32,000 bases of DNA from Candidatus Lokiarchaeum ossiferum (GTDB lineage: Archaea; Asgardarchaeota; Lokiarchaeia; Sigyniarchaeales; Promethearchaeaceae). Under the pieces are notes generated by a model that ran no database searches, had not been told where the DNA came from, and was given only the letters and a program-made list of their open reading frames with translations. The position numbers and the translations under genes were made by a program. Of this stretch, positions 2,210-26,127 are shown piece by piece; the stretch's first letter is position 1, and every line of letters begins with the position of its first letter. Location: the NCBI GenBank assembly GCA_025839675.1, contig CP104013.1:1410001-1442000 (forward strand), given 5' to 3'.

Positions 2210-3415
2210 TTAGATAATTTTTTCCATAGGGTGTTCCCATTTATTCAATTCGTTATCAAAGCCTAGATCTCCGACATCTTTATTCATGGATTTAATAACG
2301 GCATATTTTTGATATACCACTCCACTTGCCCAAATTATTGCGAACCACGCCAAAGTTGTTCCGATATAAGGAATGAACATCCTTCCTCTTAATGGACGGG
2401 CATAAATAAATTCAAAAAGGGCGGGTAAGATCCATTTATATCCATAATGCCATTTTTTGCATGCAAGGGCAAGCAAAATTATATACCCAAAATCCAGTAA
2501 AATTGAGAATAGAAATCCTACACCATGATAAAACCAAGTATCTACGATGTCTAGGGTTGTACATACAACACCTAAGAAAAATAAATAAAGAAACTCAGAT
2601 GACCATTTTGGTTCTATCCATCCAGGTGCTTTTTGATTTGATTTTTGCTCTTTATTTTTTTTTACCCAAATAATTAACCCCACAAAAAGACCAATTAGGA
2701 CATTAAAAATAACTAAAACATATCTATTCCGCGAAATCTCATAGGAAGTGTCGGTTAATAATATTTGGCACCAGTGTCCATCAATTATCACATCAGCTTG
2801 CTCCAAAGCACCACTTGTGGTGTCAAAGATGAAGGATCCATGCTTTTGATGGGTTGAACTATCATAGAGAGTTGCTTCAAAACTTGCTTGAGCTCCTGAA
2901 AGATTTCGATGCTGAGCTAAAACAGGATAAAAAACGAACTTATCTATCACTTCATATTGATACAGAGTGGAAGAATTCCCAAAGAATCCGGTGGGATCCA
3001 TAACTTCATAGAGATCGCCTTCACTTACACCCGCAAATACTACGACATTCGGAACATACACCCACCAAGGCGAATATATATTTTCCATTTTGGTATTATT
3101 TTGATAAACCCACCCTTCTGGGCTCATCCAAAAAGTGCCAATAACATTTGAATCCAATGTAATTGTGACTTGTGTGTGGGTGGTATTGATTTTACTCCCA
3201 TCCAAACGTAGGTGTAAAATATCTTGACTTGTGTAATTGAAAATCTCAAATTCCACGTACTGATCCCCATCAAAGAAATAAGCTTCTCGAAAATTAATTT
3301 TATTCTCCAATCGTTGGGATATCGGACTTAAAATTAAAGCAAATAGATAACATGAATAAACTAATACTACCAAAAATGTTCGTTTTTTCCAAGATAAACC
3401 CATTAAATATAACAT
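2210..3415 (-). CDS. Membrane protein of unknown function (N-terminal anchor, ~220-aa extracytoplasmic domain, C-terminal multi-TM domain)
   Basis: 401-aa ORF, co-directional with and 67 nt upstream of the ABC genes. Hydrophobic segments lie at the N-terminus and from about residue 230 onward. I recognise no family motif. Confidence 0.6.
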   Translation of the reverse strand: MLYLMGLSWKKRTFLVVLVYSCYLFALILSPISQRLENKINFREAYFFDGDQYVEFEIFNYTSQDILHLRLDGSKINTTHTQVTITLDSNVIGTFWMSPEGWVYQNNTKMENIYSPWWVYVPNVVVFAGVSEGDLYEVMDPTGFFGNSSTLYQYEVIDKFVFYPVLAQHRNLSGAQASFEATLYDSSTHQKHGSFIFDTTSGALEQADVIIDGHWCQILLTDTSYEISRNRYVLVIFNVLIGLFVGLIIWVKKNKEQKSNQKAPGWIEPKWSSEFLYLFFLGVVCTTLDIVDTWFYHGVGFLFSILLDFGYIILLALACKKWHYGYKWILPALFEFIYARPLRGRMFIPYIGTTLAWFAIIWASGVVYQKYAVIKSMNKDVGDLGFDNELNKWEHPMEKII

Positions 3416-3613
3416 TCAGTATAATGCTTAAAAGTTTTAGAATAGAAGTTCTAATACATTTTATAAAATAGTATAGACCCCATTCTCAGATTGTTTTAAA
3501 AATGAAAATACAATATTTGAAAAAATGAATTGAAAATTCGAAAAAAGTGAGCTTCTATTTTTAGACATTATACTTTTCAAGAGATTAAAAAACGATTATT
3601 CATTTTTTGTGAC

Positions 3614-5140
3614 ATGGAAGATTTTTGTTATGGAATAGATCATCTTACACCTGAAATAGCTCTTCAAATAGCTCGTAATGAAATAAGAGGTATATTAGCA
3701 GATAAAGCGAAAGAAAAAGTGCTTCACTGCTATAATGCAGTTCAAAAAATAGCACAAGGTGAACGACCAGTGTATTCTATCAATACAGGTTTTGGTAGTT
3801 TGTGTACCACCAAAATATCCAAAGAAGATGCAGGAACCCTTCAAGAAAATTTATTGAAATCTCATAGTGTTGGAATGGGAGATCCTATTGACGCAGAAAT
3901 TGCCAAACTTATGCTCATCCTTAAAGTACATGCGTTATGTCAAGGTTTCAGTGGTACTTCTTTAAAACTTATTGAACGTATTATTTGGCATATTGACAAT
4001 AATTATATCCCCAAAGTTCCAGAACAAGGTTCTGTCGGTGCCTCCGGAGATTTATGTCCTTTATCACATTTATTTATCCCTTTAATTGGTTTGGGAGAAG
4101 TTACCAATGATAATGGAAAAACATATATTCCAACGCAAACAGTTTTAACACAATATAACCTTACCCATTTTGCCTTAGGAGCCAAAGAAGGCTTAGCTTT
4201 AATCAACGGAACTCAATTTATGGCAGCTCATGGAATTAAAATTATCGAACGTTTACAAAACTGCCAAGATCATGCAGAAATAATTGCTGCTTTGAGTTTG
4301 GAAGGATATATGGGATCAAAATCACCCTTCGATAAGCGGCTCCATCAAGTTCGACCTCATCCAGGGGCACGGATTTCGGCAAAACGAATGTGGGCATTAT
4401 TAGAAAATTCTGAAATTCAAGTGGCCCATAAAGATTGTACTCGTGTGCAAGATCCATACAGTTTTCGGTGTATTCCCCAGATACATGGCGCAAGTCGTGA
4501 TGCTTTAGTCCATCTTAAAGAAATTATCACCCGTGAAATTAATTCAGTAACGGATAACCCTAATGTTTTTACGGAGGGAGATGAATCTATTGCAATTTCT
4601 GGAGGAGGTTTTCATGGAGAACCGATTGCACTTCCGATGGATTATGCCGGTTTAGCTGCGTCAGAATTAGGAAATATTGCAGATCGTCGAATTTATCTTC
4701 TTATGGGAGAAAAAGGTGAATATGGACTTCCTTTATATCTCATAAAGGGTTCCGGATTGAATTCTGGATTTATGATTACCCAGTACTGCTCAGCAGCATT
4801 AGTTAGTGAGAATAAATCTCTGTGTTATCCCGCGAGTGCAGATAGCATCCCCACAAGCAACGGAGTAGAGGATTTAGTCTCGATGGGATCGATTAGTGCC
4901 CGAAAAACTTTGAGGATCATCGATAATTTAGAAAAAATTCAAGGTGTGGAATTATTCTGCGCATGTCAAGCAATTGATTTTCGTAGACCCCTTAAATCCA
5001 GTCCAACTTTAGAAAAATGTTATCAATATGTCCGATCCAAGATACCTCATATTGCTGATGACGAAGTATTATCTGGATATATGAATTCTGCCACCAAAAT
5101 TATCCGTAGCAAGAAATTACTTACTTTTTTTAATATCTAA
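3614..5140 (+). CDS. hutH: Histidine ammonia-lyase
   Basis: 508-aa ORF. It carries the MIO-forming Ala-Ser-Gly motif in SVGASGDLCPLSHL, plus NTGFG and other conserved HAL/PAL family blocks along its whole length. Confidence 0.93.
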   Translation: MEDFCYGIDHLTPEIALQIARNEIRGILADKAKEKVLHCYNAVQKIAQGERPVYSINTGFGSLCTTKISKEDAGTLQENLLKSHSVGMGDPIDAEIAKLMLILKVHALCQGFSGTSLKLIERIIWHIDNNYIPKVPEQGSVGASGDLCPLSHLFIPLIGLGEVTNDNGKTYIPTQTVLTQYNLTHFALGAKEGLALINGTQFMAAHGIKIIERLQNCQDHAEIIAALSLEGYMGSKSPFDKRLHQVRPHPGARISAKRMWALLENSEIQVAHKDCTRVQDPYSFRCIPQIHGASRDALVHLKEIITREINSVTDNPNVFTEGDESIAISGGGFHGEPIALPMDYAGLAASELGNIADRRIYLLMGEKGEYGLPLYLIKGSGLNSGFMITQYCSAALVSENKSLCYPASADSIPTSNGVEDLVSMGSISARKTLRIIDNLEKIQGVELFCACQAIDFRRPLKSSPTLEKCYQYVRSKIPHIADDEVLSGYMNSATKIIRSKKLLTFFNI

Positions 5141-5160
5141 AAAACCTTAGGTAAAATGAA

Positions 5161-6420
5161 ATGACTCAAAAAACTTTGATTGGTCCATTTAAGCAAATAT
5201 TGACCATGCAAAATCTCCCTGTAAAGGGATCGATTAAAGATGAAGCTTTAGAAATCATTGAAAATGGAGCAATCTTAATAGAAGATGAAAAAATCCATAG
5301 TCTTTTGACTGAGGAACAATTCCAAACAGAACGAAAGAATTACAAAAAAAAACGTGGAGATAACATATTCTTTGAAATCACAAAGGATTCAATCTTAATT
5401 CCCGGGTTCATTGATTCACATACACATATGTGCTACGCTGGATCGCGAGCTGATGATTACGCTCGAAGAATAGCAGGTGAATCGTATCTTGAAATTGCAA
5501 AAAAAGGAGGAGGTATTTTAAGCACCGTTAAATGCACACGGGAAGCGACTAATAAGGAACTAATGCAATTATTGTTTGAACGCGGTTTGCATCATTTAAA
5601 ACGGGGAATTACAACATGTGAAGTCAAAAGTGGATATGGTCTTGATCTAGAAAATGAATTAAAGATGTTAAGAGTAATCAAACAAGCAAAGGAATCCAGA
5701 TATCTTATCCCCGATTTAGTATCTACGTGTTTAGCAGCTCATGTGAAACCGAAGGAATTTGAATCCCATGAAGACTATTTAGATTTTATTGTAAAAGAAA
5801 TCTTACCCAAAATTATAGAAGAGGGGCTTAGTAAACGTGTTGATATTTTCATTGAAGAAGGAGCTTTTGATTCCGAAATGTCATTAAAATTCTTAGAGCA
5901 AGCCAAAGCCTTAGGATTTGAAATTACTGTCCATGCAGATCAATTTTCAACAGGAGGCGCAAAAGTAGCTGCAAAAGTAGGGGCAATAAGTGCAGACCAT
6001 TTGGAAGCCAGTCAAGAAGAGGATATCATCGCAATGAAAGAAGGAAATGTAATTGCCACAGTCTTACCCGGAGCTTCAATGGGATTAGGTGTTGGATATG
6101 CTCCCGCCAGAAAAATTTTGGATAATGGTCTTTGTTTAGTAATTGCTTCCGATTGGAATCCCGGCTCAGCACCTATGGGAGATTTATTGATTCAAGCAGC
6201 AGTCCTAGGTGCCAATCAAAAATTGTCAATTGCAGAAACACTTTCAGCGATTACGAATCGTGCTGCTCTAGCATTGAATTTGAATGATCGTGGAGAACTT
6301 TCAGAAGGAAAACTCGCAGATATGCTAGCATTTCCATGTTCAAAATATCAAGAAATATTCTACAATCAAGGAATTTTACGCCCGAGTTTAATTTGGAAAC
6401 AAGGAACCCGGATAATTTAA
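5161..6420 (+). CDS. hutI: Imidazolonepropionase
   Basis: 419-aa ORF with the amidohydrolase metal motif GFIDSHTHMCYAGSR, plus VHADQ and ASDWNPGS blocks typical of HutI. It starts 20 nt after the hutH stop. Confidence 0.92.
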   Translation: MTQKTLIGPFKQILTMQNLPVKGSIKDEALEIIENGAILIEDEKIHSLLTEEQFQTERKNYKKKRGDNIFFEITKDSILIPGFIDSHTHMCYAGSRADDYARRIAGESYLEIAKKGGGILSTVKCTREATNKELMQLLFERGLHHLKRGITTCEVKSGYGLDLENELKMLRVIKQAKESRYLIPDLVSTCLAAHVKPKEFESHEDYLDFIVKEILPKIIEEGLSKRVDIFIEEGAFDSEMSLKFLEQAKALGFEITVHADQFSTGGAKVAAKVGAISADHLEASQEEDIIAMKEGNVIATVLPGASMGLGVGYAPARKILDNGLCLVIASDWNPGSAPMGDLLIQAAVLGANQKLSIAETLSAITNRAALALNLNDRGELSEGKLADMLAFPCSKYQEIFYNQGILRPSLIWKQGTRII

Positions 6421-6438
6421 AAAAAAGAGGGAATAATA

Positions 6439-8109
6439 ATGAAACAAGATATTGAGATAGCGCGAGCAGCAGAATCTAGACCCATCACCGAAATTGCTGC
6501 GAAGATGGGAATCCCCGAAGAAGCTTTAGAACCTTATGGGAAGGACAAGGCTAAAATTAGCTTAGATTTCTGTTTTAAATGCCAGAAGAAGCACAAACCA
6601 GGCAAACTCATTCTAGTCACCGCCACTAGCCCGACACCTGCTGGAGAAGGTAAAACCACAACCGCTATTGGATTAACCGAAGCATTAAATCGATTGAACA
6701 AGCAAGCTGCGGTATGCATTCGTGAACCTTCATTAGGTCCTGTTTTTGGAATCAAAGGAGGGGCAGCGGGAGGAGGATATTCACAAGTAATCCCTATGGA
6801 AGATATAAATCTCCATTTCACTGGAGATCTCCATGCAATATCATCTGCTCACAATATGTTAGCCGCAATTTTGAACAATGCTATTTATCGCCATAAAATT
6901 GATTTAGATCCAAAACGAATTTTGTGGAATCGTGTATTGGATGTAAATGATCGAGCTCTAAGGAATATCATTGTAGGATTAGGAGGACATACTGATGGAG
7001 TGTCGCATCAAAGTAGCTTTGATATAACTGCAGCATCTGAAATCATGGCAATTTTATGCCTTTCTAACAATATATCAGAGTTAAAAGAGAAAATTGGAAA
7101 TATTCTCTTAGGTTTTGATTATGCCGGTAACCCCGTCTATGTGCATGATTTAGGAGTAGAAGGATCAATCACCGTGCTACTTAAAGATGCAATTAAACCA
7201 AACTTAGTTCAAACCATGGAAAATAATCCTGCCTTTGTGCATGGAGGACCTTTTGCAAATATTGCCCAAGGATATAATACGATTATTGCCACCCAGATGG
7301 CTTTACATTCTAATGATTTCGTTGTGACCGAAGCAGGATTTGGATCCGATTTGGGGGCAGAAAAATTCTTTGATCTCGTATGCCCTTATGGAGGATTCAC
7401 ACCAGATTTAACGGTGATGGTTACTACCATCCGTGCGTTGAAAATGCATGGCGGACAATCACTAGATCGAATCACTTTGAAGAATACCGAAACTTTGGAA
7501 AAAGGATTGGTCAACTTAGGACGCCATTTAGAGAATACACGCAAATTTGGAGTCGACTGCGTTGTCGCTTTAAATAAAATCTCTTCGGATACAGACGATG
7601 AATTGCGGTTAGTTATCGATTATTGTAAAGAATTAGGTTTTGATGTGGCTCTATCCGAAGTATGGGAAAAGGGAGGAGAAGGTGGCGAAGAATTGGGGAA
7701 ATTAGTATTAAGCCATATAGAACAAAAAAATACAAGCTACCATAAATTATATGACTGGAATCAGTCGGTAGAAGAAAAAGTCAGGATTATTGCCAAGGAG
7801 ATATATCGGGCAGATGATGTTGAATTTCTGGAAGAGGCGATAGAAGATATCAAGTTTATTAATAAACTAAATTTAAGTAAACTCCCCATTTGCATTGCAA
7901 AAACACAAAAATCTTTCTCTGATAACCCTACACTAATGGGTGCACCAACCGGATTTACATTGAAGGTAAGCCGAGTATTAATTGCATCAGGAGCCGGATT
8001 TTTGATTCCAATTACAGGAAAAATGTTACGAATGCCCGGATTACCATTAAATCCTGCAGCCGAATCCATTGACATTGATTACGATGGTGATGTAGTCGGA
8101 CTATTCTGA
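6439..8109 (+). CDS. fhs: Formate--tetrahydrofolate ligase
   Basis: 556-aa ORF with the FTHFS nucleotide-binding signature TSPTPAGEGKTTTAIGL and family-typical blocks (VHGGPFANIAQG, VTEAGFGSDLGAEKF). It starts 18 nt after the hutI stop. Confidence 0.95.
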   Translation: MKQDIEIARAAESRPITEIAAKMGIPEEALEPYGKDKAKISLDFCFKCQKKHKPGKLILVTATSPTPAGEGKTTTAIGLTEALNRLNKQAAVCIREPSLGPVFGIKGGAAGGGYSQVIPMEDINLHFTGDLHAISSAHNMLAAILNNAIYRHKIDLDPKRILWNRVLDVNDRALRNIIVGLGGHTDGVSHQSSFDITAASEIMAILCLSNNISELKEKIGNILLGFDYAGNPVYVHDLGVEGSITVLLKDAIKPNLVQTMENNPAFVHGGPFANIAQGYNTIIATQMALHSNDFVVTEAGFGSDLGAEKFFDLVCPYGGFTPDLTVMVTTIRALKMHGGQSLDRITLKNTETLEKGLVNLGRHLENTRKFGVDCVVALNKISSDTDDELRLVIDYCKELGFDVALSEVWEKGGEGGEELGKLVLSHIEQKNTSYHKLYDWNQSVEEKVRIIAKEIYRADDVEFLEEAIEDIKFINKLNLSKLPICIAKTQKSFSDNPTLMGAPTGFTLKVSRVLIASGAGFLIPITGKMLRMPGLPLNPAAESIDIDYDGDVVGLF

Positions 8110-9092: not shown

Positions 9093-11162
9093 TTAATTAC
9101 GTAGAATTGAAAATTGATAGTCAGCGAGACCTTCGGTGCAGCTCACAATCATTAAAGTATGATCACCAGTTGCATAATTTGCTAAGTCTATAGCTTCGAG
9201 GGTTTCTTCCGACAAGTCATCAAGAACTAATGTCATGATATTGGAATATAATTCGACTCCATCAACAATATCAACTTTAATCAAGGTTACAATGAAATCA
9301 GTATTGGGTTTAGCAGGAGCGGTAAAAATGACAAGATCATCAGCATCATCAATAATTACTCCATTTATTGCAATATTATCTACATACCACCCTTCTTCTT
9401 CAGTCCCCCAATCAGTCATATAACGGAAGGCTAGCATAACTTCACCGGAATATGCGGAAAGATCGAATTTCATAGTGATCCATCCATCACTTTCACCATC
9501 CAAACCAGGTAGTTCTTCTTTGATTGCGGGATAGCCGTCAGGATGAATTTCATCAGTAGTATAATCATTTGCTAACGAAGTCCAAGTTTCACCGCCATCA
9601 GTCGAAATTTGTACAAAACCAAAATCCCATTCATGTTCGATGATGTACATAGTCTCAAAATTCAACACCGGATCTACAAATCCAGTAAGATCAAATTCAG
9701 CAGTCAATGCCAAATCATATTCTGGAATAGAAGATGTGGAATACCATTCTAGATCACCGTCACCATCTTGATCCACTTGAATCCATGTTGGTTTATCTGC
9801 TACATCATCCCCATTAAATTCAAATGAAGGAAGGAATGATTCTTTCAAATTATTGAATTTTATATAGTCAGAACCATAGGATCCTAATCGAGTGAACCCA
9901 GTTCTGTCATTTAAATAAGATTTAGTTTCTCCAAAATCAGATCCGAAATAATCGGTAACTGATGGTTGCATAACATTATAAATTCGTGCAGGATTTTCTT
10001 CAAAGTAAGCTCCGATGTCTATAAATATATAATTATATTTTTCATTTCCTGCATAATCAGAATGAAGTAAATTCGCGATCCTCCAGTCATGGTAAATTTC
10101 AGTAAAGGTTTCAGTATAGCCAAAATGGTTTAGGGCATTATTTAAACCTAAGATTCCAGGAATACCAGTTTTAACAAAATAACTCAGAAACTCGGCTCCA
10201 TAATGATCACCTAAATAGATCGACCATAATAAAGAACATCCATAGTCAGCTAATATATTAATATCCCCTTGATCACCCCATTCAGTTAATGAATTATCTG
10301 GTGTGGCCAAATAGGCTTCAATATCACCCCATGAAACTCCATACCCACATAAAGGTTCAGCATACATTGAGCATCCTTCATTCATGAAGGTATCATCATC
10401 AGGATTCCAGTCATCATGAATTAAATGTTGGTATTCATGAGCTACGGTTCCCATGTACATTTCAGCTCGATTATCCCAATCTGCACTATCAATTGAAATA
10501 ATGTTGCGATCAAACGCATCTTCAAAGACTCCCCAATAAAATCCAACAATGTAATAAGGATAGCTATCATCATAGTAGGCTTCATCCCTTATATTTGAGA
10601 TTAAAATAACATCACGCCCAGCGGGATCTACATAGGACTCATTAAGTTCAGCAAGTGTTCCATCATGAAATTCTGGAACTCCAAAATAGCTTGAAACTTT
10701 AGGATAGATATTTCCTTCAAATTCATCCATCATATAATCTACATGATCATCGGTGATAATTGGAGTATCCCTATTATCTGGAAAACTCATATCAACTTGG
10801 ACCCAAATTTCAGTGTGTTCACCAATGGCTCGCAGTTCAAACGCGTCTACAAAAATTCCGTCAGGCACATCAGCACTATAATCATCCAAACAATACCAAT
10901 TTACAATAGCTCCAATAGGATAATAATCTTCACCATCTAGGGTAGAAATTGCGTCAGCCACATTTATTTCCGGACTTGACACAGAAGGAAGATCAGACAT
11001 TTTTGTCTCCCGGAGACGTGGTCCAATATCCATAGGTTGTTTCATGATTGTTTCATCAATAGTTGTCGCAGATGAGGTCATCGTTAGTGCCAAGATAAAC
11101 GAACCTATAAACAACATAGGTAATATCAAGCACATCATAACTTTTCTTTTCATTTTTATCAC
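9093..11162 (-). CDS. Secreted zinc metalloprotease (MA-clan gluzincin; InhA/M6- or M30-like)
   Basis: 689-aa ORF with an N-terminal signal-like segment (KVMMCLILPMLFIGSFILALTMTSSA). The HExxH motif with a downstream Glu lies in VAHEYQHLIHDDWNPDDDTFMNEGCSMYAE. There is an Asp-box-like STDGGETW in the C-terminal beta-rich region. The exact MEROPS family is not resolvable by eye. Confidence 0.75.
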   Translation of the reverse strand: MIKMKRKVMMCLILPMLFIGSFILALTMTSSATTIDETIMKQPMDIGPRLRETKMSDLPSVSSPEINVADAISTLDGEDYYPIGAIVNWYCLDDYSADVPDGIFVDAFELRAIGEHTEIWVQVDMSFPDNRDTPIITDDHVDYMMDEFEGNIYPKVSSYFGVPEFHDGTLAELNESYVDPAGRDVILISNIRDEAYYDDSYPYYIVGFYWGVFEDAFDRNIISIDSADWDNRAEMYMGTVAHEYQHLIHDDWNPDDDTFMNEGCSMYAEPLCGYGVSWGDIEAYLATPDNSLTEWGDQGDINILADYGCSLLWSIYLGDHYGAEFLSYFVKTGIPGILGLNNALNHFGYTETFTEIYHDWRIANLLHSDYAGNEKYNYIFIDIGAYFEENPARIYNVMQPSVTDYFGSDFGETKSYLNDRTGFTRLGSYGSDYIKFNNLKESFLPSFEFNGDDVADKPTWIQVDQDGDGDLEWYSTSSIPEYDLALTAEFDLTGFVDPVLNFETMYIIEHEWDFGFVQISTDGGETWTSLANDYTTDEIHPDGYPAIKEELPGLDGESDGWITMKFDLSAYSGEVMLAFRYMTDWGTEEEGWYVDNIAINGVIIDDADDLVIFTAPAKPNTDFIVTLIKVDIVDGVELYSNIMTLVLDDLSEETLEAIDLANYATGDHTLMIVSCTEGLADYQFSILRN

Positions 11163-11371: not shown

Positions 11372-12742
11372 TTATGCTAAAAAACCGGAGTAATCAAGAT
11401 AGAATTTCAATGCAGTATATGTGAATATTAATCCAGCAATTAGTAATCCCATAGCTATAATGGGGCCAATATACATCTTCATAATTTCAGATTTCGTAGG
11501 AGCGATTTCCACTAAACCAGATGATTCCGAAATACCTTGAACAAGAGCCTTATCCCCTTCGATAATGTGTTTTGGAGGCTGGGTTGCAATTGCCACCTCC
11601 CGCTTTTTCACATCAGCAGCCGTCCCTAGTAAAGTGATGGCAAATCCCATAAAAGATATAGAGATACTTAGTTTTGATCGTTCTTGATTTAAACCAATGA
11701 CAATGAATTGTTCTTTATCATCAGTTTTGGTATTGACCATTTGAGAAAACTCAAATAAATCATTTTCTAGTTTTGTGGTTAAATTTTGAATCTCTTTATC
11801 GGACGATTGCCAAGCCAATTCAATTTCTTGTAATGATGCATTCCACTGATTATACAATAGTGATCGTAACATATATTCATCGTTACTAATAGTTTCCGTT
11901 CGAGAATCGTGTTCTTCCCAAATGGAGGCCCATCGGGCTTCAAAATATAATTCAGCCATGTTCCATAGCTTTGAAATATTAAATTGAAGAATATAGAAAT
12001 TTCCAAATAATTCTTCAGAGTGATCGGTATAAGTCTTATTGATAATATCAAAAGTATGAGGATACGTGAAATCTAAAGCACTTGGAAATACATCTGTTAA
12101 ATTTTGTTGTTCTATGATTCCCACAGTTAAATTCTCATAGTTTGAACTATTAGTATAAAAGATTTCTCTAACTTGTGGTGTGGTTCGAATTTCACTAAAT
12201 TTGTAAAGGGAATTGGCATAGAATAAACTATCATAAATTTCCCTTCGGAGAGTGGCGTTAGCTTCGGTTATATTCATATTATTTGCACTAACCATTTCTT
12301 GTAAATATATATCCAATGATCGCACTTCAACTTCTAAAATCTGACGATATTGGCTACTTATATAGTCACAATCACCAATCATTTCCACTACATAATCATT
12401 CATTTTATCATATTCATCAATTTCTTCCGAAAGAATTTGTTCCGAATAATCCATTGCATCCTTAGTTTCATCGCTTATCCGATCCTCTTCCTTACTCAAC
12501 CAAGTTGCCATATTACTTTCTAAAGTCCGAATTTCTTGGGCATTACTGGTCACCAAATCATCAATTTCATTCATATTTGAAATCCGTTTTTGAGAAATAT
12601 TGAGTTGATCGATAGTGCGTAATTGATATATAGCAGTTTGATTTTCTTCCAATTCATTTGCCATCACGCTGTTCAATGCAGATATACCAGGAAGTATAGC
12701 GGAGGAAATAACCATAATTAATATTTTGTTTACCGATTTCAT
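11372..12742 (-). CDS. Membrane protein with a large helical extracytoplasmic domain (unknown function, sensor-like topology)
   Basis: 456-aa ORF with an N-terminal signal/anchor (ILIMVISSAILPGISALNSVMA) and a helix-prone E/N/Q-rich region of about 330 aa with many N-x-S/T sequons. Two C-terminal TM segments follow (ISISFMGFAITLLGTAA and YIGPIIAMGLLIAGLIFTYTAL). Confidence 0.6.
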   Translation of the reverse strand: MKSVNKILIMVISSAILPGISALNSVMANELEENQTAIYQLRTIDQLNISQKRISNMNEIDDLVTSNAQEIRTLESNMATWLSKEEDRISDETKDAMDYSEQILSEEIDEYDKMNDYVVEMIGDCDYISSQYRQILEVEVRSLDIYLQEMVSANNMNITEANATLRREIYDSLFYANSLYKFSEIRTTPQVREIFYTNSSNYENLTVGIIEQQNLTDVFPSALDFTYPHTFDIINKTYTDHSEELFGNFYILQFNISKLWNMAELYFEARWASIWEEHDSRTETISNDEYMLRSLLYNQWNASLQEIELAWQSSDKEIQNLTTKLENDLFEFSQMVNTKTDDKEQFIVIGLNQERSKLSISISFMGFAITLLGTAADVKKREVAIATQPPKHIIEGDKALVQGISESSGLVEIAPTKSEIMKMYIGPIIAMGLLIAGLIFTYTALKFYLDYSGFLA

Positions 12743-12985: not shown

Positions 12986-13708
12986 TCAAATAGGCAAGTA
13001 AATGCTGAATTCTGCACCCATTCCTTCTTGAGAATCGATGTATATATACCCATCATGTTTTTGAATGATTTCATAGGCAGTAGCTAATCCTAATCCATTC
13101 CCATCTGCTTTTGTAGTGAAATATGGCGTAAAAATATCATTCAATATAGATTCGGGAATACCTGGCCCATTATCTTTGAATGTTAACTTTATCCAACGCG
13201 TTATGTTAGATTTGGCATTGTGAGGTTTAAAATTATTTAATTCTCTAATTGAAACTTTGATGATACCTGATTCAGTGATTGCTTGACGTGCATTTAGTAC
13301 GATATTTTGAACGACTTGACTAATCTGGTTTGGATCACATGAAATCTCCGAAATTTTTTGAGGAATTGAGTAAATAACCTTAATTCTGGATCCTGATAGA
13401 ATAAAATTTGTTGAATCTAAAACGATGTCTTCAATTGAGGCATTTTTCTTGATTGGATCACCTCCCTTTGAAAACTGCAAGAGTTGATTTGTTAATGTTG
13501 AAGCTTTATTGGCCGCGAATAAAGCATTTTCGAGATCATTTTTCAAATCTGAAGGTTGATCTAAATCAAGGAGATTCATTGACAAAGTTCCTGTAATCAT
13601 TGTCAGAATATTATTTAAATCGTGGGCAATTCCACCAACCAGCAGTGAAAGGGATTTATCCGATATATCCCGACTATTATGACATTCAGAAACCATGGGA
13701 TTCAACAT
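12986..13708 (-). CDS. Histidine kinase catalytic core (HisKA + HATPase_c) with no sensor or TM domain
   Basis: 240-aa ORF with H-box GGIAHDLNNILTMI, N-box VVQNIVLNARQA, G1 box FKDNGPGIP and G2 box GNGLGLA. An SD-like AAGGAGAG lies 7-14 nt upstream of the ATG, so the short N-terminus looks genuine. Confidence 0.88.
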   Translation of the reverse strand: MLNPMVSECHNSRDISDKSLSLLVGGIAHDLNNILTMITGTLSMNLLDLDQPSDLKNDLENALFAANKASTLTNQLLQFSKGGDPIKKNASIEDIVLDSTNFILSGSRIKVIYSIPQKISEISCDPNQISQVVQNIVLNARQAITESGIIKVSIRELNNFKPHNAKSNITRWIKLTFKDNGPGIPESILNDIFTPYFTTKADGNGLGLATAYEIIQKHDGYIYIDSQEGMGAEFSIYLPI

Positions 13709-14060
13709 AACCTTCTCTCCTTACTAAAAAAAAAAAATTTTGATTTTTGGGGGAAAAAAAAGGAAAATTAGATTTCTAACAGGTGTGTTATTTGTTTCTT
13801 CCTTGACTAAAAATATATTCCACCAACTATTTATTTATTTGGAATTTTCTTTCATACCAACTTCATTGTTTTTTATTCTATCTAAAGCATTATAATGAAT
13901 ATTTTAGAGGTCTTTCATACTCTATATTATTTTTTACAAAATAATCATTATTATTGAAGTGAATTGGGGCCATTGATTGGTATATTAATTTCTTAATTTA
14001 ATTTAATTAATTCAAAATTGAATTTTTTGTCTGGCATATTATGCAAATTTTTCCAATTTA

Positions 14061-14068
14061 TTTATAAA
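14061..14068 (+). promoter_or_regulatory. Candidate archaeal TATA box for the repeat-protein gene
   Basis: TTTATAAA lies 53 nt upstream of the ATG at 14121, and an SD-like AAGGT lies at 14107-14111. AT-rich context makes chance matches likely. Confidence 0.25.
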
Positions 14069-14120
14069 GATTTAAATTATTCTCCTTCTCTAGATCAATA
14101 ATCATTTAAGGTTGTTTATT

Positions 14121-14729
14121 ATGATGCAAAAAAAAAACAATATGATAAATCTATGTGCTCTCATTTCAATTGGAATTTTGGCATATTTCACCGTTTTGGC
14201 AGGGAAAATCTTATTTTTGAATTCAATCGAAGAAAATACGAACTTATCAACTATTATTATAGATTCTCAATTGAAACACGAAACTTTATTACACGATTTT
14301 ATAACCATGTTTAATAAAGAAACAGAAAGACCGGGAACACCTCAATTCATCCAGGATTTCATAAATATGTTTAATAAAGATAAAGAAGGACCGGGAACAC
14401 CTCAGTTCATCCGGGATTTCATAACTATGTTTAATAAAGATAAAGAAGGACCGGGAACACCTCAATTCATCCAAGATTTCATAACCATGTTCAATAAAGA
14501 TAAAGAAGGACCGGGAACACCTCAGTTCATCCGGGATTTCATAACTATGTTTAATAAAGATAAAGAAGGACCGGGAACACCTCAATTCATCCAAGATTTC
14601 ATAACCATGTTCAATAAAGATAAAGAAGGACCGGGAACACCTCAATTCATCCACGATTTTATAACCATGTTTAATAAAGGTAAAGAAGGACCGGGAACAC
14701 CTCAATTCATAAAACTAATAGTTTCTTAA
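14121..14729 (+). CDS. Signal-anchored tandem-repeat protein (7 x 20-aa module [H/Q/R]DFI[T/N]MFNK[D/E/G][K/T]E[G/R]PGTPQFI)
   Basis: The ORF is open from TTG 14112; I prefer ATG 14121, which has AAGGT 9-13 nt upstream. The N-terminus is KK followed by a hydrophobic segment (MINLCALISIGILAYFTVLAGKILFL). The rest is almost entirely seven in-frame copies of a 60-nt unit, and an oligo-T run follows the stop. Confidence 0.8.
   Translation: MMQKKNNMINLCALISIGILAYFTVLAGKILFLNSIEENTNLSTIIIDSQLKHETLLHDFITMFNKETERPGTPQFIQDFINMFNKDKEGPGTPQFIRDFITMFNKDKEGPGTPQFIQDFITMFNKDKEGPGTPQFIRDFITMFNKDKEGPGTPQFIQDFITMFNKDKEGPGTPQFIHDFITMFNKGKEGPGTPQFIKLIVS
14292..14711. repeat. Tandem repeat, period exactly 60 bp, about 7 copies; 14401-14520 is identical to 14521-14640
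   Basis: Read directly from the sequence: successive 60-nt blocks align without indels. Blocks 14401-14460 and 14521-14580 are identical, as are 14461-14520 and 14581-14640. Confidence 0.97.
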
Positions 14730-14737
14730 TTATATCA

Positions 14738-14747
14738 TTTTTTTTTT
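14738..14747 (+). terminator. Oligo-T (T10) tract after the repeat-protein gene
   Basis: A T10 run starts 9 nt after the stop codon at 14727-14729. Confidence 0.45.
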
Positions 14748-14808: not shown

Positions 14809-15942
14809 ATGATAAAACGACCAAAATTACGAAATTTGAAACAAGAAGAACTTAAAATACTTATGGAATTTCAGGAAAACCCATTTATCACTTTTGAGGA
14901 ATTGGCTCAGAAGACTAAAATATCAAAATCAGTGGTCTTTAGGACGATTAAGAAATTCGAAGATCCTTCCTTAAAACCAGCATATCTAACAATTGTAGCT
15001 ATTCCCAATTTAAGGGCTTTGAATTTTGAAAACTTTGAAGTATTTGTAGAAGCAGAACAAACCCACCAAATAAAGTCAATTATTACATTATGTGAAGAAC
15101 ATCCTTATATTTGGTACTATGCTCGCTGTTATGGAAAAATAAATGGATTTTCAATCCAATATCGTACACCCAAGGGAACGAGGCACCAAATTCAAGAACT
15201 TCTTGATATTCTAAAAACAAAAAATCTTATTCAGAATTATTATGTATTAAATTTTGAAGAAAATGTAATTTATACCCACCCTCAAGTAAAAAATTGGGAT
15301 ATGGAAACATTATCTTGGAATTTTGACTGGAATGAATGGTTTTTAAAAAAAATAGAAAAAATCCCAATTCAACAGCAGCAAAAAAATAGAGAAAAACGAC
15401 TATTAACTAATTTAAAGCAGATAGATTTACTCATATTAAAAGAATTATTAAGAAATTCCCGAAGAAAGAATATAGAAATGATTCAATGTATGAAAACGAA
15501 TGGTTGGGAAATTTCTCAACAGCAATTTAGTAAAAAAGCTAATTATTTAAAAGAAGTCTTTATTCTTGACTATAGAGCCGAAATTCATCCCGAAACATTA
15601 GATATTCTGACTCCTGTTTTGCTATGGGGAAGAGGTGAACAAGAAGAAATCCTAAAATTGGCAGTGAAAATAAAACAATTTCCAATCCCTTTTATTTCAA
15701 CTTTTAAATATAACAAGACGTTAGTTTATTGGTATTTGCACCTATCTACATTTCAGTTAGCAGAATTATTATTAAACTTACGACCAATTTTAAGTGAAAT
15801 ACACTTTTTCTTTATTGATTTCCCACATTCTGAAAAATTTTCCTTGGAAACATCCAATTTTAATGAAAATCAGCATGATTGGATTCAAACGGACCAGTTT
15901 ATAATTTATGATGTGTTGGAAAAAATATTAAAATCTCGCTAA
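14809..15942 (+). CDS. Putative transcriptional regulator with two Lrp/AsnC-like winged-HTH halves
   Basis: The ORF is open from TTG 14800, with the first ATG at 14809. The first wHTH-like segment is EELKILMEFQENPFITFEELAQKTKISKSVVFRTIKKF. A second lies about 200 aa later (IDLLILKELLRNSRRKNIEMIQCM...). Each is followed by a domain of about 100 aa, suggesting internal duplication. Confidence 0.6.
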   Translation: MIKRPKLRNLKQEELKILMEFQENPFITFEELAQKTKISKSVVFRTIKKFEDPSLKPAYLTIVAIPNLRALNFENFEVFVEAEQTHQIKSIITLCEEHPYIWYYARCYGKINGFSIQYRTPKGTRHQIQELLDILKTKNLIQNYYVLNFEENVIYTHPQVKNWDMETLSWNFDWNEWFLKKIEKIPIQQQQKNREKRLLTNLKQIDLLILKELLRNSRRKNIEMIQCMKTNGWEISQQQFSKKANYLKEVFILDYRAEIHPETLDILTPVLLWGRGEQEEILKLAVKIKQFPIPFISTFKYNKTLVYWYLHLSTFQLAELLLNLRPILSEIHFFFIDFPHSEKFSLETSNFNENQHDWIQTDQFIIYDVLEKILKSR

Positions 15943-17008: not shown

Positions 17009-18799
17009 ATGAAGAATAAAACAAAGAATATCCTAATTATCGTATCTTTTATTGTGGCTTTTGGATTAGCAAATTTCAATGAGATTCATAGTTTTCAAGA
17101 GAATATATCAGCAAAAATCTCCGATGGAAAAGAACCACAGACATCTACGACTAACAAACCCCGTTCCAGTTATGTGGTAGTGCCATTAACAATTAATGTT
17201 GTGGAAGGTACCAATCTAACTAAGGCAGAAGTAGAAGAACGAGTCAAGAAAATGAATGAGATATATAATTGCGAGGTGGTTATATTCGTGTGGAATGGAA
17301 CAATCAATACAGTGCCTGATCCAGAGGGAAATGGGGATGGAAAAATTGATTATAATGCGACCCACAGGACCAAGGTGAGGAGTGATGCAGCTAAGAAATC
17401 AGGAGGAAAAGGAGTTAGCATTACAGTGACCAATTCCCTAGGTGATAATAATACCAACGGAATGTGTATTGTGGGAGGTGCTCATTCAGCAATTGTAAGG
17501 AAAGGGACAGATGGAACCACTTGGGCACATGAAGTTCAACATGCCCTTGGGCAAAGTCACGGACAATCACAACCCGCAGGGGAAGACTTAGACGGTGATG
17601 GTGATAAAACCGATGATCGCGGTTGGGATATCGACGGCGATGGGAATGTGACCAAAAAAGATCAAGGGTATAATTTATGGGGTCGGAGAAGTGATCGAAC
17701 GGGAAACAATATGACAACTGCAGGCCATGATGCAATTTATGGGAATGCTTCTGCACTCCCAGGAGCAAGAGTTAAAACCCGTCCTGCCAAGCCAGCAACT
17801 ACAAAAACGGACGGAATCACACCCTTGAAAGGAGGAATATCACCGGGTAAACGAAATGAATCATTAACTCCAGAGAAAAAAAGTTCTAATATCATCCAAG
17901 GAGGTTTTTCAGTCAATTATACAGATCCAAAAATGACGTTATGCTTACAACTTGCCGATATGCCAGCAGGGATAGTGAGTTTTAATTTAATTATTGATGC
18001 GGATCCAAATCATGGTAATCCACTTGATGGAGCAGATATCTGGATAGATTTATTTTGTAATATGGGGGTATTTGAATTGACACCTCACACATGGGGTGAA
18101 AGTGATTGGATAGATCTCCCTCCACTACCGTTCCTTCCCAGCCCCGGAATGGATACCATCAATCTGAACAATATCACTGGATCAGGATTGGTTGATTCCT
18201 TTTTTGATGTTTTTGTCGAAGTGGACATTCCCGAGCCTGCTATAGTAGATCCATTAAGATTTAGTGAAGAAACAAAATTTTGGTTCGAGTCTTGGTCTGA
18301 GATGGATTACTCAGATCGGACCGCAAATTCAACAGTAGACATGCGAGATATTCCGGATGAAACAATTACAGTAAGTAATGAACTTACAACAGCAGGAGGT
18401 TATTTAACAGTCAATGGCACAAATTTTAGTCCCGAGTCAACAGTAACTTTATATTTTGATGGGGAATCTATCGGTACCGTGCCTACAGACACTCAAGGAT
18501 TCTTCACCCATGATATTTTAGTTATTCGGGAATTGTCCAAGGAAAATGTTATTCTCACCGCCATGGATGCGCAAGGAAAAGGAGATGGAATTTACATTGA
18601 TATCGAAGGATCAGGAACAAAGACAACAAGTAGCACTGACACAACCTCCAGCAGCTCAACATCAACTCAGTCAGATGATACTGCAGACGTCGAGAGATTA
18701 ATTATTCCAGGATATTCCCTTTTCTGGACTGGTGCAATTTCAATCTTTTCTTGCCTGTTCTTACTGAGAAAACGATCATTTTGGATTCAATTGAAGTAG
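17009..18799 (+). CDS. Cell-surface metzincin-like zinc metalloprotease with calcium-binding-type DxDGDG repeats and a PGF-CTERM-like anchor
   Basis: 596-aa ORF with an N-terminal signal/anchor (NILIIVSFIVAFGLANF). It has an exact HExxHxxGxxH motif (HEVQHALGQSH) and DLDGDGDKTDD / DIDGDGNVTKKD repeats. A Ser/Thr-rich linker (TKTTSSTDTTSSSSTSTQS) is followed by PGYSLFWTGAISIFSCLFLLRKR near the C-terminus. Confidence 0.75.
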   Translation: MKNKTKNILIIVSFIVAFGLANFNEIHSFQENISAKISDGKEPQTSTTNKPRSSYVVVPLTINVVEGTNLTKAEVEERVKKMNEIYNCEVVIFVWNGTINTVPDPEGNGDGKIDYNATHRTKVRSDAAKKSGGKGVSITVTNSLGDNNTNGMCIVGGAHSAIVRKGTDGTTWAHEVQHALGQSHGQSQPAGEDLDGDGDKTDDRGWDIDGDGNVTKKDQGYNLWGRRSDRTGNNMTTAGHDAIYGNASALPGARVKTRPAKPATTKTDGITPLKGGISPGKRNESLTPEKKSSNIIQGGFSVNYTDPKMTLCLQLADMPAGIVSFNLIIDADPNHGNPLDGADIWIDLFCNMGVFELTPHTWGESDWIDLPPLPFLPSPGMDTINLNNITGSGLVDSFFDVFVEVDIPEPAIVDPLRFSEETKFWFESWSEMDYSDRTANSTVDMRDIPDETITVSNELTTAGGYLTVNGTNFSPESTVTLYFDGESIGTVPTDTQGFFTHDILVIRELSKENVILTAMDAQGKGDGIYIDIEGSGTKTTSSTDTTSSSSTSTQSDDTADVERLIIPGYSLFWTGAISIFSCLFLLRKRSFWIQLK

Positions 18800-25677: not shown

Positions 25678-26127
25678 ATGGCAAAAAAGAAAGTAATTAC
25701 AAAAAAAATAAAGGTCGCTGAAGAAGAAGTTCAAGCTAAACCTATTAAGAAAGAAGAAACCGAAGATGTTGATGCATTTGATGTTGATGAAGTTCCAGAA
25801 TCTGCGGAAGAAATCAGTGAACTTGAACAAGAAATCAGTGAAGATGAACAAGCAGATTTCGATGAAGAAATTCAAGAAGAACGCTTCTATACAATCCCAT
25901 TAGCCAAAAAAGGATTTGAATTAACACCTCGATGGAAACGCAGTAAAAAAGCAATTAAAGTAGTGCGTGAATTCCTTGAACGACACATGAAACCGGAAGG
26001 AGAAGTGTATATTTCCCAAGATGTTAATGAACGAATCTGGGAAAATGGTATTAAAAATCCTCCACGAAAAGTTCGAGTTCGAGTAACAAAATCTATCGAT
26101 GGCATTGTAAGAGCCTATCTTGCATAA
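25678..26127 (+). CDS. rpl31e: 50S ribosomal protein L31e with an acidic N-terminal extension of about 66 aa
   Basis: The C-terminal ~83 aa match L31e (ERFYTIPL...RSKKAIKVVREFLERHMK...NERIWENGIKNPPRKVRVRV). The N-terminal part is a lysine patch followed by a D/E-rich stretch. Confidence 0.9.
   Translation: MAKKKVITKKIKVAEEEVQAKPIKKEETEDVDAFDVDEVPESAEEISELEQEISEDEQADFDEEIQEERFYTIPLAKKGFELTPRWKRSKKAIKVVREFLERHMKPEGEVYISQDVNERIWENGIKNPPRKVRVRVTKSIDGIVRAYLA

Follow-up and report, generated by a model that had tools for sequence, protein, structure and literature searches.

A tandem-repeat protein with a predicted export signal and its adjacent Lrp/AsnC-type regulator in Lokiarchaeia: a candidate peptide-precursor cassette

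The repeat gene and its partner gene

A stretch of 32,000 nucleotides from Candidatus Lokiarchaeum ossiferum (contig CP104013.1, positions 1,410,001 to 1,442,000; hereafter the window, to whose numbering coordinates refer unless another locus is named) carries two adjacent genes that form the subject of this report. The first, at 14121..14729 (+), encodes a putatively exported tandem-repeat protein of 202 amino acids (aa), an assignment that draws on the list of open reading frames (ORFs), on orthologues and on the substitution pattern among the repeat units; the second, at 14809..15942 (+), encodes a 377-aa protein predicted, from Pfam matches, structural modeling and Foldseek comparison, to have a fused tandem Lrp/AsnC fold. 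Together these genes compose a cassette that recurs in other Lokiarchaeia, and the data presented below raise the possibility that the small gene specifies a multi-copy peptide precursor coupled to the adjacent regulator.

The repeat protein is read from the ATG at position 14121, the start also used by NCBI for the orthologue on CP163304.1, and a TTG at 14112 provides an alternative start upstream. Analysis of hydropathy and charge identifies a putative export signal (14121..14204, +), consisting of a basic MMQKK (net charge +2) followed by 23 uncharged hydrophobic residues that run to VLAG; this hydrophobic stretch has a mean Kyte-Doolittle value of 2.18 and is the sole transmembrane-like window in the 202-aa protein. 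Applied by eye, the (-3,-1) rule places a candidate signal-peptidase site after VLAG and before K29, and clearer candidate sites are found in relatives (AVS/E, AYA/Y, LTA/K, VIA/Y and LNA/L, with the slash at the point of cleavage). A non-repetitive spacer of 30 aa, in the position of a pro-region (residues 29-58, KILFLNSIEENTNLSTIIIDSQLKHETLLH; 14205..14294, +), separates the signal from seven in-frame units of 60 nt, DFITMFNKDKEGPGTPQFI[Q/R/H/K] (14295..14714, +), and a C-terminal tail composed of LIVS and the stop codon completes the gene (14715..14729, +).

The 20-aa consensus of the seven units is DFITMFNK[D/E/G][K/T]E[G/R]PGTPQFI[Q/R/H/K], and units 3 and 5 are identical. Tandem Repeats Finder describes the array as 14295..14710 with a period of 60, 6.9 copies, 92% matches, 0 indels and a score of 699, a repeat far beyond chance. 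The chain ends 9 residues from the start of the last PQ, and the chains of all other members end likewise (for example PQLIEI, PQTAIIV and PQSILI). An antisense ORF of 138 aa (14289..14705, -) also spans the array; it has no start context, signal or conservation argument of its own, and stays open because the unit contains no stop codon in that frame.

A single-sequence AlphaFold2 (AF2) model of the repeat protein shows no tertiary packing (pLDDT 41, pTM 0.19) and consists of helices of 12-13 residues alternating with loops of 7-8 residues, an arrangement that agrees, as weak evidence, with beads on a string. Several database matches to the protein were considered and set aside. The Pfam families rve_2, TipAS, EF-hand_7 and MepB and the NCBIfam families PorH and AcrIIA2 matched with zero individually significant stretches, their scores being summed over the repeats, and a match to YopM-type leucine-rich repeats (E 1.1e-5) aligned P, E and N by way of a shared 20-residue period, with the LxxLxLxxNxL consensus absent.

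The partner protein is 100% identical to an NCBI entry named 'winged helix-turn-helix transcriptional regulator [Candidatus Lokiarchaeum ossiferum]'. Residues 18-55 match Pfam HTH_24 (E 2.5e-9; 37 bits against a cut-off of 21.9) and HTH_AsnC-type (E 1.7e-6; 28.2 bits against a cut-off of 27), and a weaker second helix-turn-helix (HTH) lies at about residues 196-269. An AF2 model built from nine sequences (pLDDT 82, pTM 0.75) contains two consecutive units, each composed of a winged HTH and a beta-alpha-beta-beta-alpha-beta domain. Consistent with this model, Foldseek comparison with the PDB matches the partner over its full length to fused NirDL (4ch7, E 1e-11), and each half to more than 25 Lrp/AsnC structures (E 1e-6 to 1e-4, probability 1.00), several of which are amino-acid complexes. 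The partner is thus predicted to be a fused tandem Lrp/AsnC-fold regulator of the ligand-binding type. A reading as a receptor of the tetratricopeptide repeat (TPR) type, as in the RRNPPA systems of Bacillota, was rejected: the modeled fold is Lrp/AsnC and Foldseek returned no TPR proteins.

Like the Lrp/AsnC proteins, also termed feast/famine regulatory proteins (FFRP), the partner has in each half a winged HTH and a RAM-type beta-alpha-beta-beta-alpha-beta domain. It differs from them in that two such units are fused in a chain of 377 aa, as in NirDL, where a single unit of ~150 aa is usual, in that its sequence identity to solved members is 12-20%, and in having invariant Trp-rich motifs of its own, HPYIWYY and LSWNFxW. 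At 13 of 13 loci the partner gene lies directly 3' of a gene for a small protein with an export signal, on the same strand and across a gap of 22-104 nt, and partner proteins are 42-49% identical across genera. Taken together, these features define a new subfamily of fused tandem Lrp-type regulators with a fixed genomic partner; to our knowledge, no Lrp-family protein has been described as constantly paired with a small repeat protein of the exported kind.

A family recovered by synteny

Searches at the protein level under-report the family to which the repeat protein belongs. With the whole repeat protein as query, neither a word-indexed search of 5.8 billion proteins nor scans of GTDB genomes, JGI metagenomes and IMG/VR gave a match, and an exhaustive phmmer search of 1.84 billion representatives returned one true relative, P0001 (E 2.8e-17). 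The 17 other phmmer matches were spurious alignments of repeat on repeat (mucin-like proteins, junk eukaryotic ORFs, an OmpA-like protein) that have neither the architecture of the family nor the K-x7-PQ motif described below. Exact look-ups revealed that a 15-billion-protein collection lacks four of five members, those of L. ossiferum and Promethearchaeum syntrophicum MK-D1 among them; the searches are thus largely empty because most members are missing from what was searched, and members were therefore read from DNA by synteny.

Synteny via the downstream partner gene recovers the family in Lokiarchaeum, Promethearchaeum and uncultured Lokiarchaeia relatives, with a diverged unit in 2-11 copies in at least 10 further Lokiarchaeia loci. 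The DFITMFNK-type unit present in seven copies in the window is found in five copies in L. ossiferum CP163304.1 (locus L001). Among the relatives, L006, whose protein is P0001, carries four copies of DLITTLCKEENGTGTPQLIQ, L007 at least three copies of EVITALYKEENGTGTPQFIR, L009 three copies of GVFNLIKGDAGTTGPQSLLT, L010 at least four copies of the same unit as L009, L011 eleven copies of SIFNIVKQEGGTGSPQSIIE and L012 two copies of IIQKESGGEGGPQSILI; P. syntrophicum MK-D1 carries four copies of IIQKEDNGGGGPQSVPEDYMI, and P0029 and P0030 carry three copies each of a unit related to it.

Despite lineage-specific units of 17-21 aa, the members have a common plan. Firstly, all have a basic N-terminus, an uncharged hydrophobic stretch of 19-26 residues and then a spacer, most being 69-128 aa long. 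Secondly, the invariant spacing K-x7-P-Q, with hydrophobic residues behind it, is common to all units of the main cassette, and in all main-cassette members the chain ends 3-8 residues past the last P-Q. Units are anionic across the family (net 0 to -3); examples of unit sequences are DFITMFNKDKEGPGTPQFIQ and IIQKEDNGGGGPQSVPEDYM. The helical hydrophobic moment is 1.7-2.1 in units of the Lokiarchaeum branch (PQFIQDFITMFNK-type segments) and 0.2-0.9 in units of the Promethearchaeum branch, which hold internal Pro; since the latter are not amphipathic, K-x7-P-Q, and not amphipathicity, is the conserved property.

More distant homologues of the partner (32%, 27% and 22% identity) are preceded by proteins with an export signal that bear a C-terminal Gly-rich-Pro motif once or twice. 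At L015 (1167..1673) and L016 (3443..3964) these are mutually homologous (E 8e-9), non-repetitive proteins of ~170 aa with no Pfam or PDB match, whose tails read GGDPGRPTIDIVEIDQL and GEGGGSPTIGL immediately before the stop codon; at L018 (3665..3874) the protein is 69 aa long and ends in two copies of GDGGGSPGPG. Position and the short motif suggest that these proteins are homologous to the repeat family, and their tails may represent the ancestral single-copy state of the module. A neighboring gene at L016 (2400..3287, -), read by eye as a secreted caspase-like protease, found no support in Pfam.

An initial annotation of the window, made from the sequence alone, had described the module, its seven copies and the spacer, and the ORF, Tandem Repeats Finder, unit-by-unit and hydropathy analyses agree with that description. 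Its further statement that the protein belongs to no described archaeal family also stands, as no Pfam or NCBIfam model, source-given name or paper on the family was found. Structure prediction, known repeat families and related genomes, to which it had pointed as possible sources of counter-evidence, supplied none: AF2 yields no confident fold, the protein fits into no known repeat family (matches to Pfam and NCBIfam are sub-threshold noise, the EF-hand loop test considered below gives 1-2 of 6 positions, and YopM shares a period only), and the module is present in relatives with a variable copy number. The amphipathic helix that it had proposed for each module holds in the Lokiarchaeum branch and fails in the Promethearchaeum branch.

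Selection, copy number and paired duplication

Comparison of the units at the DNA level argues that the array is maintained as protein. Among the window units pS is 0.25 and pN 0.048, with replacements clustered at unit position 20 and in the two outermost copies, and the resulting pN/pS of 0.19 marks the repeat as translated, selected sequence. Elsewhere the ratio is 0.18 (L001), 0.12 (L011) and 0.10 (L006), values which, being pairwise, are not independent, the arrays of L009 and MK-D1 being too short to inform; in L011, 10 distinct DNA units (pS 0.40) encode 5 peptide variants. All 20 unit positions, those of the loop included, are kept identical within a protein. These patterns of substitution point to purifying selection on the units within each protein.

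Between close lineages, by contrast, it is the unit that changes most rapidly, ahead of both leader and partner. Specifically, L011 and L009 are 84% identical in the partner, 77% in the leader and 40% in the unit, and the corresponding values for MK-D1 and L017 are 87%, 66% and 52%. A conserved leader joined to a fast-changing, internally uniform peptide is a pattern familiar from secreted peptide precursors.

Copy number varies over short evolutionary distances. The window is ~98% identical to the 6.27-Mb chromosome CP163304.1 (GCA_041410205.1), and the seven copies of the former differ from the five of the latter by a clean two-unit indel of 120 nt, units 4-5 (or 3-4) of the window being the extra pair; one nucleotide differs in the 174 nt of signal and spacer, and the partner is identical. 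Similarly, the near-identical loci L009 and L010, again with an unchanged partner, have 3 and at least 4 copies, respectively. All copy-number changes are in frame.

The small gene and its partner duplicate as a pair in L009, L010 and L011, where a second cassette lies directly 3' of the first (L009 5788..7322, L010 2183..3666, L011 9811..11396). Its small gene encodes a protein with a predicted signal peptide and two or three copies of a 17-aa unit, FFEKIAVGGGGLPSSIG or ILEKTAGGGGGLPSLIG, and its partner is 33-35% identical to the first; here too copy number is polymorphic, with three copies in L009 and two in L010 in regions otherwise identical. At L012 a tandem-Lrp paralogue (3028..4083), about 29-31% identical to the cassette partners, stands alone, and no small ORF is present in the 177-nt gap that separates it from the first cassette.

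Transcription signals and genomic setting

A TATA-box-like sequence, TTTATAAA (14061..14068, +), lies about 52 nt 5' of the ATG and probably serves as promoter of the repeat gene; when 11 loci are placed side by side, the motif TTTATA(T)AAAG[GA]TTTAAATT is conserved 5' of the small gene at both Lokiarchaeum- and Promethearchaeum-type loci. Nine nucleotides past the stop codon, a T10 tract (14738..14747, +) is a candidate terminator, oligo-T being the usual type of archaeal transcription terminator, and tracts of 6-11 T are found between the small and partner genes in 9 of 10 repeat-family loci. A scan for promoters and terminators gave promoter-like matches at the level of shuffled sequence and no hairpin terminators, and is uninformative because its models are bacterial and the host is archaeal. 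About 15 nt 5' of the TATA box is a near-palindrome, TGGCATATTATGCAA (14032..14046, +), which is perfect over 15 bp in the five-copy strain (TTGCATATTATGCAA, L001 17595..17609) and resembles the form of archaeal Lrp-type operators, TTGYAWWWWWTRCAA. As an operator, however, this palindrome was rejected, with 2 matches found against 1.13 expected and with no conservation at other loci.

Divergent from the repeat gene is a gene for a 240-aa histidine kinase (12986..13708, -) in which Pfam detects HisKA and HATPase_c only, with no sensor or transmembrane domain. Orthologous small kinases occupy the same upstream position in L006, L009 and L011, a response regulator and a PAS kinase take that position at Promethearchaeum-type loci, and no two-component neighbors are seen at the deeper loci L015, L016 and L018. 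This recurrence suggests that the small kinase is possibly part of the same regulatory unit as the cassette.

Also 5' of the repeat gene, at a distance of 1.3-5 kb, are a MAM-domain metalloprotease of the InhA-like M6 type (9093..11162, -) and an adjoining 456-aa protein (11372..12742, -). The window DNA is otherwise low in GC (about 30-40%) and archaeal chromosomal in character, with genes that include Nep1, RNase P Rpr2, L31e, eIF6, prefoldin, FtsY, tRNA-Gly and formate-tetrahydrofolate (THF) ligase. A HAL-type aromatic amino-acid ammonia-lyase, an amidohydrolase and the formate-THF ligase stand in a row at 3614..8109 (+) and look like an operon of the histidine-utilization type. A 596-aa protein (17009..18799, +) with no Pfam match and a sub-threshold NCBIfam match to a GxPGS Ig-like domain has a 595-aa counterpart downstream in L007, and a 21-nt tandem repeat of 2.1 copies (25808..25852) lies in the N-terminal extension of the ORF with the L31e domain (25678..26127).

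A proposed propeptide coupled to a regulator, and the alternatives

What is conserved in the small proteins beyond the leader is confined to 1-11 tandem units, in which hydrophobic residues and a K precede acidic residues, and these in turn a Gly-rich stretch, P-Q and a second set of hydrophobic residues. From this architecture and from the company that the gene keeps we infer export with cleavage, proteolytic processing, a signaling role and a receptor function for the regulator: the small protein would leave the cell through Sec as a multi-copy propeptide, and its units, once freed on the outside, would form a signal that is specific to the lineage and linked to the Lrp-type regulator, a reading that we favor while judging its chances to be a little less than even. 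Under such a model, a strong TATA promoter would drive the small gene independently, with most transcripts ending at the oligo-T before the regulator gene; Sec would export the product and the signal peptide would be removed; and extracellular proteases would cut the unstructured repeats into several copies of a peptide of ~15-20 residues, the number of units setting the dose. The released peptide would then act as a lineage-specific extracellular signal whose level feeds back on transcription via the adjacent Lrp-type regulator, either directly, if the re-imported peptide or a fragment of it occupies the cleft of a RAM domain, or indirectly, via the neighboring sensor-less kinase or response regulator. 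Chain ends that fall at the end of a unit, propeptide-like sizes, selected unit identity and ancient pairing with a regulator all fit the logic of a precursor. The InhA-like protease is a conceivable processing enzyme. The broader proposition that the cassette is an encoded peptide communication system of Asgard archaea, sensed directly or via two-component proteins, is put forward tentatively and is the less likely of the two.

A number of observations weigh against a processed propeptide. The units are not flanked by any recognizable cleavage motif of the dibasic, double-glycine or a comparable type; the loci examined have no consistent neighbor that is an oligopeptide importer or a dedicated protease, and the InhA-like protease is seen only at the Lokiarchaeum ossiferum-type locus and not in other genera. 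Known RRNPPA pheromones measure 5-10 aa, whereas the units run to 17-21 aa, and the deeper relatives at L015 and L016 carry before the tail a non-repetitive domain of ~140 aa, unlike a propeptide. On the side of the regulator, amino acids, not peptides, are the known ligands of Lrp/AsnC RAM domains, and the only larger ligand known for this fold is sirohaem, in AhbAB/NirDL; moreover, adjacency and paired duplication would be equally expected if the regulator merely controls the small gene. Finally, signal-peptide cleavage is read from the sequences by eye, following the (-3,-1) rule, and the low AF2 confidence is weak evidence of disorder because the model was built from a single sequence with no alignment.

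Several of these points would suit an unprocessed secreted or surface repeat protein, in which the intact chain presents a polyvalent motif or an array of amphipathic helices, in the manner of proline-punctuated apolipoprotein-type helices, to membranes or lipids, a partner cell or the matrix, for example, and the Lrp-type protein is its regulator. The helix-loop periodicity of the AF2 model (12-13 and 7-8 residues) and the high hydrophobic moment of the Lokiarchaeum branch (1.7-2.1) speak for such an array, as do the absence of a cleavage motif, the copy-number variation that is typical of surface repeat proteins, and the expectation that a local regulator and its target would likewise stay adjacent and co-duplicate. 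Amphipathicity is, however, not kept in the Promethearchaeum-type units (0.2-0.9), the mature proteins of L018 and L012 would be about 43-60 aa with two units, a size that hardly suits a structural or adhesive protein, identity at 20 of 20 positions goes beyond the usual need of a structural repeat, and no anchor, signal of the cell-wall or sortase type or confident fold was found; we consider this alternative somewhat unlikely, yet the strongest of the rivals. Retention of the long hydrophobic stretch (19-26 uncharged residues, with positive charge on its N-terminal side) as an uncleaved signal anchor would instead give a type II membrane protein, its repeats displayed outside as an accessory sensor or ligand trap for the kinase or regulators. 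That the adjoining kinase has no sensor of its own, and that two-component genes recur 5' of the cassette, would agree with this arrangement; most members, though, have good small-residue (-3,-1) sites past the hydrophobic stretch, the cytoplasmic part would offer only 5-20 residues for contact with a soluble kinase or regulator, and two-component neighbors are not seen in L015, L016 and L018, all of which makes it improbable.

Identical cores following a leader also recall the multi-core precursors of modified or antimicrobial peptides, whether ribosomally synthesized and post-translationally modified peptides (RiPPs) or archaeocin-like toxins, and units that are hydrophobic and vary between lineages would be in keeping with such products. 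We nevertheless assign this origin a slim chance. Neither the Pfam and NCBIfam annotation of the window neighbors nor the gene tables of related loci contain a modifying enzyme (ATP-grasp, YcaO, radical SAM, or a protease or macrocyclase), no immunity gene or dedicated transporter is adjacent at the examined loci, and the genes nearby instead encode a kinase, the regulator, housekeeping functions or uncharacterized proteins; in addition, a Sec-type signal is atypical of prokaryotic RiPP leaders, anionic units (net 0 to -3) are unlike cationic membrane-active peptides, and the Cys, Ser and Thr patterns of known RiPP classes are absent. A calcium-binding protein with EF-hand-like repeats is suggested by weak summed matches (calmodulin, E 3e-5 to 1e-3; EF-hand_7, 22.9 bits against a cut-off of 30), which arise because F-N-K-D-K-E-G resembles F-D-K-D-G-D-G. 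When the 12-residue loop was tested for D at position 1, D/N/S at 3 and 5, G at 6, I/V/L at 8 and E/D at 12, each of seven members had 1-2 of the 6 canonical positions, with N/C/Y/V/I/Q rather than D at position 1, G/T rather than I/V/L at 8 and F/L/S/Y rather than E/D at 12; the calmodulin alignments contain no domain below an i-Evalue of 0.01 and drift in register, and the period is 20 aa as opposed to about 36 per EF-hand. The loop test thus effectively refutes this very unlikely reading at the level of sequence. The least credible alternative is a non-functional lineage-specific expansion or spurious ORF, for which one could cite the near absence of protein-database matches and of any name for the protein. 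Such emptiness, however, largely reflects absence from the collection, as four of five look-ups fail, and the reading is already contradicted by position, architecture and motif conserved across genera with partners 42-49% identical, by pN/pS of 0.10-0.19, by the conserved TATA motif and by copy changes that remain in frame.

Significance

Archaeal cell-cell communication was still described in 2025, in a study of Haloferax, as a field in which 'little is known' (PMC11760428). Literature searches found no report of an archaeal signal that is a secreted, ribosomally encoded peptide and has a cognate regulator; nor did they find an earlier account of the repeat family or, for Asgard archaea, of any pairing between Lrp regulators and secreted repeat proteins. 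If the signaling interpretation were true, the cassette would be the first peptide-receptor signaling cassette described in archaea, its receptor would have a fold not previously known to read peptides, and polyprotein-style peptide precursors would exist among the prokaryotes most closely related to eukaryotes.

The Lokiarchaeia grow in consortia bound by obligate syntrophy and serve as cultured models for the archaeal ancestor of eukaryotes. In such syntrophic organisms, a conserved and rapidly diversifying exported array wired to a dedicated regulator would constitute a concrete candidate for the sensing of kin or partners, and the cassette is testable because two of its hosts, Lokiarchaeum ossiferum and Promethearchaeum syntrophicum MK-D1, are cultured. 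Even if the signaling interpretation is wrong, the work defines an unannotated protein family, so far restricted to Lokiarchaeia and undescribed, brings to light a new subfamily of fused tandem Lrp-type regulators whose genomic partner is fixed, and demonstrates that synteny recovers members missed by sequence searches and protein catalogs.

Comparison with known systems

Exchangeable apolipoproteins are built of proline-punctuated, amphipathic helical repeats of 22 residues, and the Lokiarchaeum-branch proteins resemble them as predicted secreted tandem amphipathic helices with Pro/Gly breaks and a high hydrophobic moment. The helices of the Loki proteins are, however, much shorter (12-13 residues) and some members are tiny, amphipathicity is not family-wide, and there is no match in sequence or fold.

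A closer likeness is found in eukaryotic polyprotein precursors such as alpha-factor, the neuropeptide and pro-hormone precursors and the Kex2-processed repeat proteins of fungi, among them the ustiloxin precursor, with which the Loki proteins share a predicted signal peptide, a pro-region and tandem identical peptides, as well as a variable copy number, copies kept identical by selection and a conserved leader joined to a variable peptide. They differ in that no Loki unit, in any member, is bordered by KR, RR or KK, the borders being instead I-[QRHK]-D, I-I-E, L-L-T, P-E-D and similar; in that the array has no spacer distinct from the peptide; in that the host is a prokaryote with no convertase pathway of endoplasmic reticulum and Golgi; and in the lack of homology. 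The initial annotation had invoked yeast alpha-factor, ustiloxin-type precursors and amphibian antimicrobial peptides as analogies. The first two lose their force given that dibasic (Kex2-type) sites are lacking and that no neighboring gene encodes a modifying enzyme, and the third given that the units are anionic; the underlying logic of a multi-copy precursor keeps the support of unit-terminal chain ends, propeptide sizes, selection and a paired regulator, and loses the defining features of the systems named.

The RRNPPA systems offer the nearest parallel in gene organization. RRNPPA propeptides are Sec-exported proteins of 50-120 aa in which the mature peptide is C-terminal and present in 1-4 tandem copies (PMC11343458; PMC9765709). 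In Rap-Phr, PlcR-PapR, NprR-NprX and AimR-AimP, as in the Loki cassette, a propeptide-sized gene lies beside the gene for a regulator which, like the Loki partner, is cytoplasmic, about 300-400 aa long and equipped with an N-terminal HTH. Further likenesses are a signal of predicted Sec type, an element repeated in tandem at the extreme C-terminus, rapid divergence between lineages, duplicated cassettes and solo receptors, to which the paralogue at L012 would correspond. Against these stand several differences: there is no homology, the Loki partner having a predicted tandem Lrp/AsnC fold and the RRNPPA receptor a TPR fold; the Loki units are 17-21 aa long in up to 11 copies, compared with pheromones of 5-10 aa in 1-4 copies; the small Loki gene lies upstream and has a terminator-like T tract of its own; no Opp genes are found next to the cassette in the window or in the gene tables of related loci; and the hosts are Lokiarchaeia rather than Bacillota or their phages. 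As the partner is of the Lrp/AsnC and not the TPR type, the cassette is not RRNPPA by membership, and its resemblance to RRNPPA cassettes is best regarded as analogy rather than homology. Viewed architecturally, the Loki cassette restates the theme of a peptide precursor joined to a regulator, using a receptor-type fold and occurring in a domain of life that are both new to it.

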